From an uncultured Alphaproteobacteria bacterium (GTDB taxonomy: Bacteria > Pseudomonadota > Alphaproteobacteria > CAAHEQ01 > UBA3637): a DNA stretch of 64,000 bases. Shown here one piece after another: positions 3,761 to 55,570 of this stretch. The notes below the pieces were generated by a model. It made no database searches and had not been told where the DNA came from. It saw nothing but the letters and a program-made list of their open reading frames with translations. The stretch lies in the NCBI GenBank assembly GCA_944392585.1, contig CALXXA010000028.1, forward strand, positions 521-64,520, read 5' to 3'. Within the stretch, counting starts at the first letter, position 1, and every line of letters starts with the position of its first letter. Position numbers and translations under genes: made by a program.

Positions 3761-4191
3761 TATCCAACTCCAAAAAAGCGTTTTCCCGAGGTGCGTATGC
3801 CTGTGATATGATGGGCAGCTGATGATAAACTGGTGTAATAGGTGCCGTCCATATCTACGCCCCTTTCCAAAATAGTGACACGATAGTCCGTCCCTTTATA
3901 GGTGCGGACTATCACTGTTCCCACCGGATATAAGCTTTTCTTGCGTTGTTGTTTTTCAAAGAGTTTTTTAATCAGGCTTTTTGTCTTTAAGGATAATCCC
4001 CCATGGCGTAATTCTTGCAAACGGTAAGAAACGCGCAAGATGTAAAACTCTTTATTGCCAATGCGGGCTTCTTGATTATACAGTTGCATATAATACTGTT
4101 TCAGGACATGAAAAGGCAAATCCGGCACAGTGCTAATATCAATGTTTAAGTCAAGATTTGTATCAACCATAGCGACTCCTTGTGAATACAA
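3760..4191 (-). CDS. DUF2924-family protein, a frequent partner of large serine recombinases
   Basis: 143 aa. Tail 'SLSSAAHHITGIRTSGKRFFG' is typical of DUF2924. Start overlaps the recombinase stop. Confidence 0.6.
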   Translation of the reverse strand: MYSQGVAMVDTNLDLNIDISTVPDLPFHVLKQYYMQLYNQEARIGNKEFYILRVSYRLQELRHGGLSLKTKSLIKKLFEKQQRKKSLYPVGTVIVRTYKGTDYRVTILERGVDMDGTYYTSLSSAAHHITGIRTSGKRFFGVG

Positions 4192-4768: not shown

Positions 4769-5530
4769 ATGAAGGAATTTTACAGGAATTTATTTCAAGT
4801 ATATTTGTTTATGGCCCGGGCTTTATTTCCGAAAGATTCTGCTCTGCAACGCGAATTTTTACTGATAAAGGTCTCAGGCCTTGAAAAGGAAATGCCCGAA
4901 GTTTTTGAAAAATTGGGTGGGGTTTCACTTTTACGCCTGTACCGATCGGCCAAAGAGATGAAAAAATTACAAGAGCATATTCAAACAACCGATTGGTCTT
5001 ATGTCATGCGGATGTTAAAAACAATGCAGTCCATGCAACAGGATCCCAAATTGGCCGGTAAAGTCAGCCTCAACAAAGCGGCATTTGTTTTGGATAAAGA
5101 CATCAAAGAGGGAAAAGCTAAAGATTCCCAAAAGAACAATGCCCCTCGCTATAAAGATATCTGGCGCCAATATCGGGGTGTGGCCCATCTGATAGAGGCC
5201 CTTCAAATCATGAAAATGCAGTATCTGGAATGGACAGACAATCCTATCCCTTTTGAAGCCTTTTTGGCGTTGGCACTGGATCACCTGAATTTGGCCGCCT
5301 ATCAACAAGGGGAAGAACTGAAGAAATTGTACGAAGGACATACCAAAAAGCCCATTGTGCCGGCGGATGAATTTTTTGCGATAGAAAAACCAAAACTGGC
5401 CGAAGATGAATTAGCCATTGCCTTGGTGAAAGAGTGCCTTTTAAGCGACCCAACACTCAGTAAGAAAATCAGTAAATACCGCGCCCCGGTCTTTGACTAT
5501 GGGAACTTTGTCATTCCAAGCGATAACTAA
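4769..5530 (+). CDS. Hypothetical protein (253 aa) whose 3' end is duplicated downstream of the Abi cassette
   Basis: Clean ORF, GC-richer than the core genome, divergent from the alpA-like gene. The C-terminal 14 codons plus stop recur at 7104-7159. Confidence 0.55.
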   Translation: MKEFYRNLFQVYLFMARALFPKDSALQREFLLIKVSGLEKEMPEVFEKLGGVSLLRLYRSAKEMKKLQEHIQTTDWSYVMRMLKTMQSMQQDPKLAGKVSLNKAAFVLDKDIKEGKAKDSQKNNAPRYKDIWRQYRGVAHLIEALQIMKMQYLEWTDNPIPFEAFLALALDHLNLAAYQQGEELKKLYEGHTKKPIVPADEFFAIEKPKLAEDELAIALVKECLLSDPTLSKKISKYRAPVFDYGNFVIPSDN

Positions 5531-49422: not shown

Positions 49423-51615
49423 TTACCGGAGGACTTCGCGGACTTTTTGTGTTAATTGAGACAAGCTAAAAGGTTTGGGAAGGAAAGAGAAAGTTTGAGA
49501 ATCATCTTTCCCATGTCTGGCGAAGTCTTGAGAATAGCCGCTCATTAAAATGACTCGGATATTAGGATATCGATTTTTAGCAAGTTCAGCAAGCGTTTCT
49601 CCATCCATTCCAGGCATCATCATATCGGTTAGCAGTAAATCAAAAGGTCCGTTTTCTTCCATTTTTTTGAGAGCCTGTTCTCCGTCGGAACATTCTGTTA
49701 CGGTAAATCCTTTATTTTTAAGGACACGCGAACTAAAAGCACGAACAGCATCTTCGTCTTCTACCAGTAAAATTTTTGCGGAGCTTGTCGGAAAAGTATG
49801 AATGATTGTATTTTTCTGATCCGGCTCTTTTGATGCTTGCGTGAAGCGAGGTAAGTAAATAGTGAAAGTCGTTCCTTTTCCTAAAGAACTTTCCACTTGA
49901 ATATATCCGTCTGTTTGAGTAATGATTCCATAAACGGTTGATAATCCCAGACCTGTTCCAGAACCGGCGATTCCTTCTTTTGTCGAGAAGAAAGGTTCGA
50001 ATATACGAGATAAATTTTCTTGAGAGATACCGCATCCTGTATCAGTGACTGTAATAACGATATAAGTTCCCGGTATCATGATATCAGATCCGACGGTCCT
50101 TGTTTTTTTAAATGTTTCAACTTTGCTTTTGATTGTTAAAGATCCTCCATTCGGCATAGCGTCTCTTGCGTTGACGGCTAAGTTTAAAAAAACTTGGGTT
50201 AATTGATTAGGATCTACTTTAACGAAACCTAATTCCGGCGCATGTTGTGTTTTGAGCTCTATTTTAGGTCCGATACTGCGATGTAAAAGAGCCGTTAATT
50301 CCGAGAAAGCATCAGCAATATCTATAAGGCGAGGTTTTAAAGGTTGTTTTCTTGAAAAAGCGAGTAATTGACCAACTAAAGCAGAGGCTCTGTTTGCATT
50401 ATGCTTTATTTGCATAATATCGGCAAAAGAAGGATCTCCCATAGTATGTTTTTGTAAAAGTAGATCCGAAAAGCCGATAATTGCTGTCAACAAGTTGTTA
50501 AAATCATGAGCGACACCTCCGGCTAATTGCCCCATAGCCTGCATTTTTTGAGCGTGTGCCATTTGCATTTCCAGATTTTTTCGTTCAGATGAGTCGGTTA
50601 AATACAAAATGAAAGAGGAAACATCTGTCTCCTCAAGCCCGTTCATCTTAGGTTGTATAGGAGCTATAAATGCAATGGCGCTTCGTGTTTGCCCGTGAGG
50701 GAAAATAAAATTTAATTCGCATTTTTCAAATTTTTGAGCTTTCATTAGAAGCTTTGATAGCTTAAGCGGTAATGTTTCTTTGCTTTCTGTGTCAATAAAA
50801 GATAAAAAAGATTGGTCTTTTATTTGTTCAAATGGCAATGCCATCATCTTTTGAAAAGCTATATTCGCTTCTAAAACGGATAAATCCATTGCATCAATAA
50901 CGACCATTCCTAAAGGAGCATTTTGGAAAAAATCCGGAAATCCATCCGTATGGAATGAAGAGGTCGACGGAGAATCTTCTTCTTTAATGACAATGCTTTG
51001 GAACATTGTTTTCCCATCTTGATCAAAAGATGTTTGATAGACTTTGGCTGGGAAGGTCTTTTTCCCCGATTTAAATAAAACGCTTCCGCTCCAAGCTCCA
51101 TTCATATCAGGAAGTAATCCTTTGATGATTTCTTGTAAATGACGACCTTTAATATCTTCTTGTTTTTTATCCGTCCAATGAGATAATACGTCATTCATAA
51201 ACTGAACGCATCCTTCTGAATCAACAATATAAAGTCCGACGGGAAGTGTATCAATCGATTCTTGTAAAGTCGCTTGTTCTTGTCGAATTAAAGATTGAAT
51301 GACAACGGTGTCTGTTAAATCTTCTCCTATTAAAAGAAAATCTTTATTTACTTTCTTGAGCGTTATTTTATATGTTTTTTCTTCAACTTCTATTTGAACG
51401 CTTAAAGGACATCTTTGCATATAAGCGCTTTTGAGCTTTTCCAAAACGTTTTGTTGCGTTGTTTCTTTTAAAAAAAGAAAAGGATCTGTTCCTTCTTTAA
51501 AAAGTTGACGCCCTTTTTTGTTGGAAACCAAAACACGGCCATGGCTGGAGCGAAGTTGGCGCGCATCCGATTCTGTGTCTAGCAACGCTTGAAGAGCTTT
51601 GTTTTTCCCAATCAT
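49423..51615 (-). CDS. Hybrid sensor histidine kinase/response regulator (PAS-PAS-HisKA-HATPase-REC), CckA-like, apparently soluble
   Basis: 730 aa. H-box 'GVAHDFNNLLTAI', G2 box 'GTGLGLS', receiver 'LLLTDMMMPGMDG'. No N-terminal TM segment is evident. Confidence 0.8.
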   Translation of the reverse strand: MIGKNKALQALLDTESDARQLRSSHGRVLVSNKKGRQLFKEGTDPFLFLKETTQQNVLEKLKSAYMQRCPLSVQIEVEEKTYKITLKKVNKDFLLIGEDLTDTVVIQSLIRQEQATLQESIDTLPVGLYIVDSEGCVQFMNDVLSHWTDKKQEDIKGRHLQEIIKGLLPDMNGAWSGSVLFKSGKKTFPAKVYQTSFDQDGKTMFQSIVIKEEDSPSTSSFHTDGFPDFFQNAPLGMVVIDAMDLSVLEANIAFQKMMALPFEQIKDQSFLSFIDTESKETLPLKLSKLLMKAQKFEKCELNFIFPHGQTRSAIAFIAPIQPKMNGLEETDVSSFILYLTDSSERKNLEMQMAHAQKMQAMGQLAGGVAHDFNNLLTAIIGFSDLLLQKHTMGDPSFADIMQIKHNANRASALVGQLLAFSRKQPLKPRLIDIADAFSELTALLHRSIGPKIELKTQHAPELGFVKVDPNQLTQVFLNLAVNARDAMPNGGSLTIKSKVETFKKTRTVGSDIMIPGTYIVITVTDTGCGISQENLSRIFEPFFSTKEGIAGSGTGLGLSTVYGIITQTDGYIQVESSLGKGTTFTIYLPRFTQASKEPDQKNTIIHTFPTSSAKILLVEDEDAVRAFSSRVLKNKGFTVTECSDGEQALKKMEENGPFDLLLTDMMMPGMDGETLAELAKNRYPNIRVILMSGYSQDFARHGKDDSQTFSFLPKPFSLSQLTQKVREVLR

Positions 51616-51962: not shown

Positions 51963-51992
51963 TTGACAGCGTGTTTCTTAAAACGCTATCTT
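51963..51992 (+). promoter_or_regulatory. Putative sigma70 promoter of nrdD: TTGACA, 18-nt spacer, TATCTT; the spacer contains an imperfect palindrome gcgtgttt...aaaacgc
   Basis: Read directly from the sequence. It lies in a 420-bp AT-rich divergent region. The palindrome could be an operator (NrdR or FNR-type site not confirmed). Confidence 0.3.
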
Positions 51993-52035
51993 GAACTCTA
52001 CATATAAAAAAGAAGACTAGATATAGTAGTTTAAT

Positions 52036-54111
52036 TTGACAAGAGGATACAAAATGTTGGAAGTCATCAAAACATCAGAAGCAGAACCCTATCAAATAGA
52101 TATAGCTCCTTTGACAGATGTTATTAGTCGGGATGGTCAGGTTATTTCTTTTGATGCTTCAAAAATCGTAAGAGCAATTGAAAAGGCTGGGAAAGCTACC
52201 GGAGAATTCGGATTAGATGAAGCATGGCTTTTAGCAAGTCAAGTCGTTAAAGTTCTTAAACATCGGTTTGCTCATGGAACAGCACCGCAAGTTGAGCAAA
52301 TTCAAGATGTCGTTGAGCAATGTTTAATATCTTCTAATTATTATAAAACGGCTCGTGCATATATTGTTTATCGTGAGCGCAGAGAACAAGATAGACAAGA
52401 TAAAAAAACATTCGTTGATGTCATCGCATCTATTAATGAATACTTAGATCGTTCTGATTGGCGTGTTAGTGCCAATGCTAATCAAGGATATTCTTTAGGA
52501 GGATTGATTCTTAACACCTCCGGGAAGATGATTGCTAATTATTGGTTGAACCATGTGTATCCTAAGGAAGTCGGAGAGACTCACAGACGAGGAGATTATT
52601 ATATTCATGACTTAGATATGTTGTCAGGGTATTGTGCCGGGTGGTCTTTGAGAATGTTGCTGACGGAAGGGTTTAACGGGGTTCCAAATAAGGTTGAAGC
52701 ATTACCTCCCAAACATTTGGATACAGCATTTTTGCAAATGATTAATTTCTTAGGGACACTTCAAAATGAATGGTCCGGAGCGCAGGCCTTTAGCTCTGCG
52801 GACACATATTTGGCTCCTTTTATTCGCAAGGATAATCTTTCTTATGAAAAAGTTAAACAGGGGATGCAATCTTTTATTTATAATGTGAACGTTCCTTCTA
52901 GATGGGGAACTCAAACTCCCTTTACAAACTTAACTTTTGATTGGGTGTGTCCTGAAGATTTACGAAATGTACATCCTATTATCGCCGGGGAAGAAGTTGA
53001 TTTCACTTATGGAGAGCTTCAATCAGAAATGGATATGATTAACAGAGCGTATATTGAAATCATGACCGCTGGGGATGCTCGCGGGCGTCCGTTTACTTTC
53101 CCTATCCCGACGTATAATATCACAAAGGATTTCCCATGGAATTCTAGAAATACAAATCTTTTATTTGAAATGACTGCCAAATATGGGTTGCCATATTTCC
53201 AGAATTTTATTAACTCTTCTTTGTCTCCAAAACAAGTTCGCTCTATGTGTTGTCGGTTGCAATTGGATTTAACAGAGTTATTGGCAAGAGGGAATGGCTT
53301 GTTCGGATCCGCTGAACAAACAGGTTCTATCGGTGTTGTTACAATTAATTGTGCTCGATTGGGGTATCTTTATAAGGGAAATGAAGAAGCGATGATAAAG
53401 CGCTTGGATGAGCTGTTGGAGTTGGCTAAGACTTCTTTGGAAATCAAGCGTAAGGTTATTCAATCATATATGGATTCGGGGTTGTTCCCCTTTACAAAAA
53501 GATATTTAGGGACTTTACGCAACCATTTCTCAACAATTGGTGTTAATGGAATTAATGAAATGATCCGTAATTTTACGAATGATCAATATAACATTGCAGA
53601 TGCTGAAGGTATGAAATTCGCTATTCGGTTGTTAGATCATATCCGGGGAAAAATGGTTCAATTCCAATCTGAAACAGGTCATATGTATAATTTAGAAGCA
53701 ACTCCGGCGGAGGGAGCTACGTATCGGTTTGCTCGAGAAGATCAAAAACGGTTTCCTGATATTATTCAAGCGGGAACTCACGATGCTCCATATTATACGA
53801 ACTCTTCTCAATTACCGGCCAATTATACGGATGATCCTTTTGAAGCGTTGGATTTACAAGATACTTTACAGACTAAATATACCGGAGGAACAGTCTTACA
53901 TCTATATATGAATGAGCGAGTTTCTAATTCGGACACGTGTAAAGCTTTTGTTAAAAATGTTTTGGAGAATTATCATCTGCCTTACTTAACAATTACGCCT
54001 GTTTATTCTATTTGTCCTAAACATGGATATTTGTCTGGTAAGCATAAATTTTGTCCGCGTTGCGATGAGGAGTTAATTGCAAAAAAGCGTAAAAAAGTTT
54101 CTGTGTCTTAA
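52036..54111 (+). CDS. nrdD: Anaerobic ribonucleoside-triphosphate reductase large polypeptide, ending after the C-terminal Zn ribbon
   Basis: 691 aa. ATP-cone N-terminus. C-terminal 'CPKHGYLSGKHKFCPRC' Zn ribbon. No glycyl-radical motif in this ORF. Confidence 0.85.
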   Translation: MTRGYKMLEVIKTSEAEPYQIDIAPLTDVISRDGQVISFDASKIVRAIEKAGKATGEFGLDEAWLLASQVVKVLKHRFAHGTAPQVEQIQDVVEQCLISSNYYKTARAYIVYRERREQDRQDKKTFVDVIASINEYLDRSDWRVSANANQGYSLGGLILNTSGKMIANYWLNHVYPKEVGETHRRGDYYIHDLDMLSGYCAGWSLRMLLTEGFNGVPNKVEALPPKHLDTAFLQMINFLGTLQNEWSGAQAFSSADTYLAPFIRKDNLSYEKVKQGMQSFIYNVNVPSRWGTQTPFTNLTFDWVCPEDLRNVHPIIAGEEVDFTYGELQSEMDMINRAYIEIMTAGDARGRPFTFPIPTYNITKDFPWNSRNTNLLFEMTAKYGLPYFQNFINSSLSPKQVRSMCCRLQLDLTELLARGNGLFGSAEQTGSIGVVTINCARLGYLYKGNEEAMIKRLDELLELAKTSLEIKRKVIQSYMDSGLFPFTKRYLGTLRNHFSTIGVNGINEMIRNFTNDQYNIADAEGMKFAIRLLDHIRGKMVQFQSETGHMYNLEATPAEGATYRFAREDQKRFPDIIQAGTHDAPYYTNSSQLPANYTDDPFEALDLQDTLQTKYTGGTVLHLYMNERVSNSDTCKAFVKNVLENYHLPYLTITPVYSICPKHGYLSGKHKFCPRCDEELIAKKRKKVSVS

Positions 54112-54127
54112 AATTAAGGAGGGAAAT

Positions 54128-54322
54128 ATGAATACAGAAGAAATCTTATTATCTGATGATGAACGCCAACCTGTGGAATGTTGGACTCGTGTGATGGGTT
54201 ATTATAGACCGGTGATTTTTTTCAATAAAGGGAAACAAAGTGAGTTTGCTGAAAGAGTTTGGTTTAAAGAAGACAAGGCTGTTTCCGGAATGAACAGGAG
54301 TGATTGTATCAAAGAAGCCTAG
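54128..54322 (+). CDS. Stand-alone NrdD glycyl-radical domain (64 aa): 'TRVMGYYRPV...FNKGKQSEFAERV'
   Basis: Strong RBS AAGGAGG at 54116-54122, 5 nt before the ATG. The motif matches the NrdD C-terminal 'RVCGYLG...NxGKQxExxxRV' region. It is in a different frame from nrdD, 16 nt after the nrdD stop. Confidence 0.6.
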   Translation: MNTEEILLSDDERQPVECWTRVMGYYRPVIFFNKGKQSEFAERVWFKEDKAVSGMNRSDCIKEA

Positions 54323-54337
54323 GTTTATGAAAGATAG

Positions 54338-54367
54338 AACGCTCCGATGATCGGAGCGTTTTTTCTT
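54338..54367 (+). terminator. Rho-independent terminator between the glycyl-radical ORF and nrdG
   Basis: aacgctccga-tga-tcggagcgtt followed by ttttcttaaaaa. Confidence 0.65.
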
Positions 54368-54384: not shown

Positions 54385-55092
54385 ATGATAAAAATAGGTG
54401 GCTTATTGCCTTTTACAATGATAGATTTTCCAGGAGAATTGGCCGCAGTTGTCTTTTGTCAAGGGTGCTTATTGAATTGTCCGTATTGCCATAATCCGGA
54501 GTTGAAAAGTTTATCGGATTCAACTCAGACTACGTGGAGCGATGTTATAAGCTTTCTAAAAAAACGTCAAAAGTTGTTAAGAGGCGTTGTTTTTAGCGGA
54601 GGAGAACCGTTACTTCAAAAGAATTTACACCAAGCGGTTTTAGAAGTTAAGTCTTTAGGGTTTAAAGTTGCGTTACACACTTCCGGAGCTCTGCCGGAAG
54701 CTTTGGGAAAACTGTTACAAGACCTTTCATGGATTGGATTAGATATAAAAGGTTCTTTCTCAAAATATCATAAAGCCTCGGGGACGAAAGTTGAGTTAAA
54801 TATAGCAGCATCTGTTCAAAAATCTCTAGATATGATATTAAGCGCCGGTGTTCCTTTCGAAGCACGAACAACAACAGATCCTAGAGTGCTAACAAAAGAG
54901 GATATTTTGGAGATGGCGTCATATTTATCTCAAAAAGGCGTTAAAACATACGCTTTGCAAGAGTATCGTCCTTGTAATAATGGGAGGATGCCGGAACCTT
55001 CTATGGAGGCTATCAGCGCTTTTTATCTGGATAAAATTTTCCTAAAAAAATTAGAAGATTTATTTGATTCTTTTATTATTCGGCGGGCGTAA
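54385..55092 (+). CDS. nrdG: Anaerobic RNR activating enzyme (radical SAM)
   Basis: 235 aa. 'CQGCLLNCPYCHNP' is the CxxxCxxC cluster motif. Confidence 0.85.
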   Translation: MIKIGGLLPFTMIDFPGELAAVVFCQGCLLNCPYCHNPELKSLSDSTQTTWSDVISFLKKRQKLLRGVVFSGGEPLLQKNLHQAVLEVKSLGFKVALHTSGALPEALGKLLQDLSWIGLDIKGSFSKYHKASGTKVELNIAASVQKSLDMILSAGVPFEARTTTDPRVLTKEDILEMASYLSQKGVKTYALQEYRPCNNGRMPEPSMEAISAFYLDKIFLKKLEDLFDSFIIRRA

Positions 55093-55570
55093 TTTCAAGA
55101 AAGTGTTTTTTCTTGGTTATTATTGATTCAAATTCATCTAAAACCTGAAGATAGACGTTTTTTTTAAAAGGAACAATATGATTTATTAAAAAATCCTTTT
55201 CAACCCATTGGAAATCATCAAACTCCATATCTTGGCGAGAGGAAAAGTCTTTTTGTATATTTAATCCCGTATATAAAAACAGGAACCATTTTTGTTTTTG
55301 TCCGCTCCATTTTTTTCGCTTTTCTTCGGGAATCCAATCCGGGAAGTCATAAGTATACCAATTTTTTGTTTGGCTGATATAAGAAATTTCGCGGATTCCC
55401 GTTTCCTCAAAAAGCTCTCGTTTCGCAGCATCGAAAGGATTTTCATTTTCATCAATTCCTCCTTGAGGCATTTGCCAGCGGTAAGAATCTGTTTGTCCTT
55501 TTCGAGAAGCAACAAAAATTTTATGATTATTATTTATAAGCATTATTCCAACGTTAAGACGATAAGTCAT
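55076..55570 (-). CDS. rppH: RNA pyrophosphohydrolase (NUDIX)
   Basis: 164 aa. NUDIX box 'GGIDENENPFDAAKRELFEETGI'. Confidence 0.85.
   Translation of the reverse strand: MTYRLNVGIMLINNNHKIFVASRKGQTDSYRWQMPQGGIDENENPFDAAKRELFEETGIREISYISQTKNWYTYDFPDWIPEEKRKKWSGQKQKWFLFLYTGLNIQKDFSSRQDMEFDDFQWVEKDFLINHIVPFKKNVYLQVLDEFESIITKKKHFLEITPAE

Follow-up and report, generated by a model that had tools for sequence, protein, structure and literature searches.

The window analysed here, a 64,000-nucleotide (nt) stretch of contig CALXXA010000028.1 from an uncultured alphaproteobacterium, carries a gene for an anaerobic (class III) ribonucleotide reductase (RNR), nrdD, whose product stops shortly past its predicted zinc ribbon, and a separate open reading frame (ORF) of 64 amino acids (aa), located between nrdD and the activase gene nrdG, on which the glycyl-radical motif is found. 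In our judgement the locus very probably encodes a functional class III RNR with two obligate subunits, each translated on its own. In descriptions of glycyl radical enzymes the radical glycine is part of a C-terminal domain of a single chain; this locus and many relatives would thus represent a natural class III reductase whose radical domain is a separate small protein. Two-piece class III RNRs are apparently widespread but unrecognised. The elements of the cluster are as follows:

52054..54111 (+): nrdD large subunit, 685 aa, with ATP-cone, barrel, zinc ribbon and conserved tail (Pfam, NCBIfam)
54116..54122 (+): Shine-Dalgarno sequence AAGGAGG of the small ORF, 5 nt before its ATG (read from the sequence)
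54128..54322 (+): small subunit, 64 aa, the detached glycyl-radical finger (NRDD profile match, homologs)
54385..55092 (+): nrdG, radical-SAM activase of the NrdG2 type (TIGR02495, Pfam)

The two subunits and their junction

The longest frame of the large gene in the ORF list extends from a TTG at 52036 to 54111 and gives 691 aa. The true start of nrdD is almost certainly the ATG at 52054, because AAGAGGA lies 7 nt upstream of it and a product of 685 aa is found in all assemblies and close homologs. An earlier reading of the same DNA (hereafter the sequence-only reading) had reported a 691-aa ORF ending right after the zinc ribbon; the ending stands and the length is corrected to 685 aa. The large protein matches Pfam ATP-cone (78.5 bits), Pfam NRDD (586 bits, profile positions 2-531 of 562) and the NCBIfam model PRK08270 (1119 bits, cut-off 548, positions 3-658 of 684). 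Its finger-loop motif SMCCRLQLDL, with cysteine codons at 53248-53253, is assigned as the thiyl radical site by motif and alignment, and the corresponding motif of a relative aligns with the CCRL loop of Thermotoga maritima NrdD. The predicted zinc ribbon CPKHGYLSGKHKFCPRC, of pattern CPKH-x9-CPRC, lies at 54013-54063. Since T. maritima NrdD binds zinc through CxxxHx6CxxC (PMC4493059), the Cys3His site CxxHx9CxxC of the window is regarded as complete on the large subunit. The chain stops 15 residues past the ribbon, after the conserved tail DEELIAKKRKKVSVS (54064-54108), and lacks the glycyl-radical motif RVxGY, which is located on the 64-aa ORF.

Downstream of the large-ORF stop codon (TAA, 54109-54111) a 16-nt gap precedes the ATG of the small ORF at 54128, which is in the +1 frame relative to the large ORF. 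The small ORF carries TRVMGYYRPV...FNKGKQSEFAERV, in which the candidate radical glycine is Gly24 (54197-54199). The small protein matches Pfam NRDD at positions 530-561 (33 bits, cut-off 26.2) and PRK08270 at positions 649-682; its NCBIfam matches are NrdD models, all below cut-off. In profile positions the two ORFs thus tile one NrdD, without missing piece, gap or overlap. The sequence-only reading had placed the glycyl-radical signature on a separate 64-aa ORF in the +1 frame, 16 nt on, behind a strong AAGGAGG ribosome-binding site; the coordinates hold, and the Shine-Dalgarno sequence is kept in relatives. Likewise borne out is its placement of the break between zinc ribbon and glycyl-radical loop, the former being on the large subunit and NRDD positions 530-561 on the small one, and it is this same profile match that provides the alignment to the NrdD C-terminus which that reading had proposed as a check. 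The Pfam scan of the small protein returned NRDD only, with no match to the Gly_radical family of pyruvate formate-lyase (PFL) type. We found no Pfam, NCBIfam or annotated PHROG family devoted to the small protein, which gave a weak match to phrog_4132, a family of unannotated function.

Among 104 stand-alone homologs of the small ORF, 14 columns are invariant, those of RVMGY included. The ratio of nonsynonymous to synonymous substitution rates (dN/dS) over a 36-residue core is 0.03-0.18, with synonymous sites near saturation, which indicates strong purifying selection on the small ORF. The conserved part of the small subunits opens with a (D/E)ERQPxExW strand leading into the glycine loop, and the large piece carries a conserved helix motif, D-x-E-L-I-A-x-K-K, after the ribbon; the break falls in the short loop between this helix and this strand.

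The position of the break was also mapped on structure models. A natural fused relative, P0391, was modelled with AlphaFold2 (AF2); it shares about 63% identity with the large subunit of the window. The mean predicted local distance difference test score (pLDDT) is 84, and solved class III RNRs are the best structural matches of the model. After the ribbon this model shows a helix at residues 694-706 (D-x-E-L-L-A-x-K), a loop at 707-714 that corresponds to the mapped split site, a turn, a beta-hairpin (722-727 and 730-733) that carries the glycine at the tip, and a helix at 739-747. Modelled alone (pLDDT 69), the small protein of the window has a hairpin of residues 16-19 and 25-28, with Gly24 at the tip, and a helix at 34-41, as in P0391; a tail follows.

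Two cysteine features vary among the small subunits. In most alphaproteobacterial copies, both those in operons and the unlinked ones described below, the tail carries CxC or CxCxxxxxC (KACPCSREEAA, CACVNERGC; e.g. loci L007, L010, L048 and L029), and the tail of the window copy (54275-54319) has one cysteine only (SDCIKEA); these cysteine tails could serve redox functions or metal binding. A lone cysteine before the glycine loop (residues 15-19, 54170-54184 in the window) shifts its position, occurring as P-V-E-C-W in most operon copies and as P-C-E-V-W in many unlinked copies (L026, L035, L047, L053), in Pleomorphomonas and in fused forms. Exactly one cysteine is retained before the loop in either form, two residues apart on the same strand.

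Conservation of the split, unlinked copies and fused relatives

At least six independent assemblies contain the identical 64-aa protein, accompanied by nrdG and the gene of the 685-aa NrdD. A database search with the small protein yielded 121 candidates, and 120 of the 120 listed were stand-alone proteins of 50-91 aa with 55-83% identity; as this search pre-filters on shared words, it is insufficient alone to exclude fused relatives. With the large subunit, the best 120 matches (74-100% identity) were all 682-704 aa long and had the same truncated form. An alignment of small proteins was then used to scan one genome per GTDB species, by which 255 loci were confirmed; the best 80 of these were fetched, and the junction, orphan and synteny counts given below cover those 80. 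They comprised 49 split operons, 30 small ORFs with neither NrdD nor NrdG within 4 kb (orphans) and a single fused gene (L046, Chthoniobacteraceae).

The gap from stop codon to ATG in the 49 split operons ranges from -4 (an ATGA overlap) to 182 nt and all three relative frames are represented, and AGGAG or GGAGG precedes the small ATG in nearly all of the split operons and of the 30 orphans. In the closest other species (L007, L008 and L010) the frame of the small ORF is closed one codon before its ATG, and L007 has three in-frame TAA codons between the two ORFs; with these stops no frameshift or readthrough fusion is possible there. Because that frame is closed in the closest other species, its being open over the A-rich run of the window is best regarded as coincidence. 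The split is retained at least down to about 59% identity of the large subunit, and is found in metagenome-assembled genomes (MAGs) of gut and rumen Alphaproteobacteria (the group of the window), in cultured Pleomorphomonas species and in Burkholderiales MAGs.

These comparisons show an old and widespread split architecture, and a small gene predicted to be translated independently, from its own ribosome-binding site. The sequence-only reading had preferred a genuine two-piece NrdD to a very recent frameshift and had leaned toward independent translation. Both preferences are upheld, the former by the six assemblies, the variable gaps and frames and the closed frame in relatives, the latter by the Shine-Dalgarno sequence at nearly every related junction and by the stops between the ORFs of relatives; the same split in related genomes, which it had suggested looking for, is what the 49 operons represent.

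The nrdG product matches the NrdG2 model TIGR02495 (202 bits, cut-off 131) and contains Radical_SAM and Fer4_12 domains. nrdG follows the small ORF in 48 of the 48 related operon loci that reach far enough, one further locus ending 72 nt past the small ORF. This constant order shows the large gene, the small gene and nrdG as, in all appearance, one conserved operon. In the cultured Pleomorphomonas koreensis DSM 23070, two split operons of nrdD, small gene and nrdG lie on separate scaffolds (L039 and L060).

Orphans recur in two conserved neighbourhoods of housekeeping genes: in the first they have hpf-ptsN on one side and rnhA, a DsbD-like gene and infC on the other, and in the second they are flanked by a gene for an outer-membrane protein and by a transglutaminase-like gene plus alr (L015, L016, L024, L026, L035, L037, L047, L052-L056, L058, L062-L064, L068, L070, L073, L076, L079, L082, L083 and L086; the small ORF lies near position 4000 of each fetched orphan locus). 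Four of the 30 orphans have little upstream sequence, and three of these share synteny with clear orphans. Sixteen genomes contain both an operon copy and an orphan, which are 78-100% identical (mean 86%) over the 36-residue core, and the dN/dS of orphans is 0.03-0.10. The syntenic neighbours hpf, ptsN, rnhA, infC and alr were not found in the 64-kb window, and the orphan-type protein P0027 derives from other samples than the window does.

Stand-alone copies also occur in phages. Phage contigs L089-L091 carry the small ORF at about position 5000, in variants of 80-91 aa with a longer N-terminus, and also encode DNA polymerase I, a primase/helicase, a Cas4-type exonuclease, lysozyme and tail proteins; in genomes of about 45 kb the small gene adjoins the replication module. 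A scan of IMG/VR revealed 23 viral contigs with the small ORF (L094-L116), many of them 43-47 kb long. In 22 of these 23, as in L089-L091, the copy is stand-alone, often with an extended N-terminus, and without NrdD or NrdG in the fetched flanks (5-10 kb each side, less at contig ends). One phage contig shares its source study with a contig identical to the window. Among the cultured phages of INPHARED, a search with the phage-type small ORF gave only a weak match inside a full-length NrdD of an archaeal virus. In the viral locus L114 (7326-10153) the NrdD large subunit is divided into two blocks, as an inserted intein would leave it, and the small ORF directly after it has an open frame that stops at ...SRVMGV, at the radical glycine; this may reflect an intein, a truncation or an error.

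With the large subunit as query, 1.84 billion representatives of 50%-identity clusters were searched exhaustively by HMMER, and the best 150 were sorted. Seventy-two end 12-56 residues past the ribbon without a glycine loop, and 53 are fused, with a spacing from ribbon glycine to RVxGY fixed at 20-22 residues; the remaining 25 are unclassified, some being junk (frameshift) translations and some carrying a C-terminal thioredoxin-like domain, and intein entries clutter the listing. The relatives of the fused gene of L046 (1862-4159; P0391-P0510) include 80 fused and 37 split forms, the fused ones, Desulfovibrio and Solidesulfovibrio among them, having 11-55 residues between the CxxC of the zinc ribbon and the glycine. 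Long-linker fusions retain both D-x-E-L-L-A-x-K, the end of the split large subunit, and (D/E)ERQxCE[IV]W, the start of the small one. The presence of both end motifs suggests that these fusions are two genes joined end to end, by secondary re-fusion of a split ancestor. In a neighbour-joining tree of the barrel region the window falls within an all-split clade, and parsimony requires at least eight changes between split and fused; the tree shows a covalent link that would have been lost or regained repeatedly. Among P0241-P0390 many homologs are 900-1900 aa long and match in 2-5 blocks, suggesting inteins, and several proteins (P0256, P0267, P0285, P0295, P0320, P0321, P0334 and P0347) end in a thioredoxin/NrdH-like CPxC domain, not a glycyl-radical domain.

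Transcription signals and neighbouring genes

Three putative regulatory features flank the two ORFs:

51963..51992 (+): promoter-like site, TTGACA, 18 nt, TATCTT (10/12 consensus positions; function putative)
52016..52029 (+): imperfect palindrome ACTAGATATAGTAG, a possible degenerate NrdR box (weak)
54338..54367 (+): GC-rich hairpin with T-run, resembling an intrinsic terminator, probably partial (folding, relatives)

The 68-nt intergenic stretch from small ORF to nrdG has a fold energy of -21.9 kcal/mol and contains a hairpin stem of 10-12 bp (54338-54360) followed by TTTTTTCTT. A consensus scan lists the palindromic stem on the minus strand only, about two such sites being expected by chance in the region. 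In 10 relatives with a spacing of at least 44 nt between small ORF and nrdG, hairpins of unrelated sequence with T-runs occur in the same place, and the hairpin is absent in relatives where nrdG overlaps or starts within 20 nt; because of this recurrence we accept the hairpin as real. No promoter-like site was detected by the consensus scan between hairpin and nrdG. The hairpin probably acts either by partial termination, lowering read-through into nrdG, or by stabilising the upstream message, both of which would result in less activase. The sequence-only reading had called it a hairpin terminator before nrdG: the structure is confirmed, and a function as partial terminator or attenuator is inferred.

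Upstream of nrdD, the TTGAC element of the -35 region is found at the matching relative position in 13 relatives. L007, L017, L025, L034 and L048 likewise have an AT-rich palindrome 25-35 nt ahead of the start of nrdD, and the palindromes ACACTATATGTTGTAT and ACAATATATAGTGT, at the matching position in relatives, are better matches to the NrdR box. As the nrdD promoter of the window contains no match within three mismatches of the NrdR-box consensus used (the window copy has four), its palindrome ranks as no more than a weak candidate. Scans with Rfam and for tRNAs gave nothing near the locus.

Divergent from nrdD, at 49423-51615 on the minus strand, lies a gene for a hybrid PAS-HisKA-HATPase-receiver kinase, and a neighbour of this kind with 40-85% identity precedes the operon in 11 or more other species (L007, L009-L013, L022, L023, L025, L033 and L036); the kinase may serve the operon as a sensor of oxygen or redox state. 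A gene for a 164-aa Nudix hydrolase (55076-55570, minus strand) converges on nrdG and overlaps its end by 17 nt, and in about 15 other species a Nudix homolog lies a short way downstream of nrdG.

Proposed mechanism, rival explanations and known systems

In the mechanism we propose, NrdG would abstract hydrogen from Gly24 of the small subunit, either while this subunit is free or while it is docked beside the zinc domain of the large subunit, and the activated finger would then enter the barrel and come to lie beside the cysteine loop, the position that the fused domain takes in solved structures of NrdD. In single-chain enzymes the glycyl-radical domain swings out of the barrel for access of the activase and then returns beside the cysteine loop (PMC13450708, PMC11226230). 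A separate finger could achieve an equivalent swing by binding and unbinding. Oxygen cleaves glycyl radical enzymes at the radical glycine. With a detached finger such cleavage would therefore cost about 60 residues instead of about 750, and we put the chances as roughly even that the separation makes the oxygen-fragile radical piece cheap, replaceable and exchangeable. The exchangeable-part reading is drawn from the unlinked second copies that relatives retain and from the copies that phages bring with them. Its fullest form, a detachable radical cofactor with three sources, in which the operon copy serves routine activity, unlinked chromosomal copies are reserves and phage copies re-arm the host large subunit for phage DNA synthesis, we advance tentatively, at slightly less than an even chance. 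If this form is correct, spare parts would for the first time be known from a glycyl radical enzyme besides PFL, and the enzyme would be the first of its kind to have dispensed entirely with a covalent radical domain.

Several observations weigh against the two-subunit enzyme or against the exchange of its finger. The NrdD zinc domain was conjectured earlier to be the docking site of NrdG (PMC4493059); as this domain remains on the large subunit, the free small subunit may be a poor activase substrate, which may weaken the version in which the finger is activated free and then docks. The linker region of the P0391 model has pLDDT block means of 96-97, so that the split site does not lie in an obviously floppy segment, and an electrostatic zipper between a basic large-subunit tail and an acidic small-subunit N-terminus is unsupported, the mean net charge of the tail being about -0.5. 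The 64-kb window holds no second copy of the small ORF, and its species is not among the GTDB representatives. The neighbour-joining tree is a rough one, without bootstrap support values. The split may be of no selective consequence, and the orphans may simply be paralogues. Finally, neither a split NrdD nor a class III spare part was described in the open-access papers searched, and a prior description elsewhere is possible.

One rival explanation holds that the gene really encodes a single NrdD chain and only looks split here, through a recent frameshift, decay into a pseudogene or an error of sequencing or assembly in the A-rich run. The +1 frame is indeed open from 54077, and a single-base indel within 54077-54108 would fuse both ORFs; the junction is nevertheless identical in the six independent assemblies, hundreds of species keep the split with differing junction lengths and frames, close relatives have stop codons in the small-ORF frame just before the ATG, and the small ORF is under purifying selection behind a canonical Shine-Dalgarno sequence. 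We regard this explanation as already refuted by the comparative data, with a negligible residual chance. Extremely improbable is a programmed +1 frameshift or readthrough that would yield a fused NrdD, the small ORF never being made alone: the A-rich run before the stop and the overlapping open frame of the window are what such recoding would use, but neither a slippery sequence nor a frame overlap is conserved, the gaps of -4 to 182 nt in three frames often contain several in-frame stops (three TAA in L007), and orphan and phage copies have no upstream NrdD to be recoded from. It has also to be considered that the small protein might mainly be a regulator or decoy for NrdG, the large subunit being inactive or otherwise employed. 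A free glycine-loop peptide could compete for NrdG, and the assembly of the two pieces is inferred; against this, the large subunit retains all NrdD catalytic features save the glycine loop and scores 1119 bits on an equivalog model, the small ORF supplies exactly the missing profile positions, the order of the three genes is always the same and natural fusions of both pieces exist, which together make the decoy very unlikely.

The most serious rival accepts the obligate two-subunit enzyme and considers the split a neutral accident, with orphan and phage copies as paralogues or passengers instead of spare parts. Repeated interchange of split and fused forms on the tree is expected if linkage matters little; the class II RNR NrdJa/NrdJb is divided without an obvious adaptive story (PMC4520616); and the link of the extra copies to oxygen damage is putative. 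On the other side, the orphans are kept in conserved synteny under strong purifying selection (dN/dS 0.03-0.10), their cores are 78-100% identical to the operon copy in the part that would insert into the barrel, and phage genomes of about 45 kb retain the gene beside the replication module, which is hard to reconcile with a useless passenger. We hold this alternative to be less likely than not.

The two-subunit reading has practical consequences. Since cultured Pleomorphomonas species share the architecture, the spare-part question is directly testable, and the small protein, at about 60 aa, is a minimal natural substrate with which to study both the installation of the radical by the activase and the docking of the finger into the barrel. 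In current annotation the small genes are mostly unnamed or hypothetical and the truncated large genes are named as complete enzymes, and surveys filtered by length would miss the small partner.

Compared with the single-chain NrdD/NrdG systems of E. coli, phage T4, T. maritima and Prevotella copri, the locus has the same domain order (ATP-cone, barrel, zinc ribbon, RVxGY loop) and an adjacent activase gene, and the model of the fused relative superposes on the solved structures. It differs in that the chain ends past the zinc ribbon and the glycine loop is a separate product with its own ribosome-binding site, and in having a conserved helix motif after the ribbon, on the large piece, and a conserved (D/E)ERQP lead-in on the small piece. 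By its sequence, the locus is thus predicted to be a class III reductase in every tested respect save that the glycyl motif is on another chain.

[quoted passage not shown] In relatives of this locus the parallel extends to unlinked and phage copies, as with YfiD and Y06I (PMC8683613); the window itself holds no second copy. GrcA/YfiD, however, belongs to the Gly_radical family of PFL type, whereas the small protein here is of NrdD type and about half the size; and the parent of GrcA/YfiD has a radical domain of its own, which is replaced after oxygen cleavage, whereas the large subunit here lacks the glycine loop. Since the parent enzyme itself lacks a radical domain, the small protein would be an obligatory component, not a repair part. 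It may be likened to an autonomous radical cofactor of GrcA type, from outside that family, for which rescue is a putative role. Papers from 2021 and 2026 (PMC8683613 among them) describe spare parts as validated only for PFL, and reviews of 2021 and 2026 treat the existence of spare-part radical domains beyond PFL as an open question.

Among RNRs, the split class II enzyme NrdJa/NrdJb of Pseudomonas aeruginosa likewise distributes a catalytic chain over two adjacent genes, with a C-terminal module, a zinc-finger/IscU-like redox tail, on the second (PMC9669993). It uses adenosylcobalamin, and its split detaches this tail and not, as here, the radical-storing residue. Extra unlinked or phage copies are not reported for NrdJa/NrdJb, unlike for the small ORF described here. 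Benzylsuccinate synthase (alpha-beta-gamma) and 4-hydroxyphenylacetate decarboxylase also combine a large barrel with very small subunits encoded in the same operon. In both of these enzymes the glycyl radical is on the large subunit and the small subunits are iron-sulphur (FeS) proteins, whereas the small subunit of the present locus is the predicted carrier of the radical.

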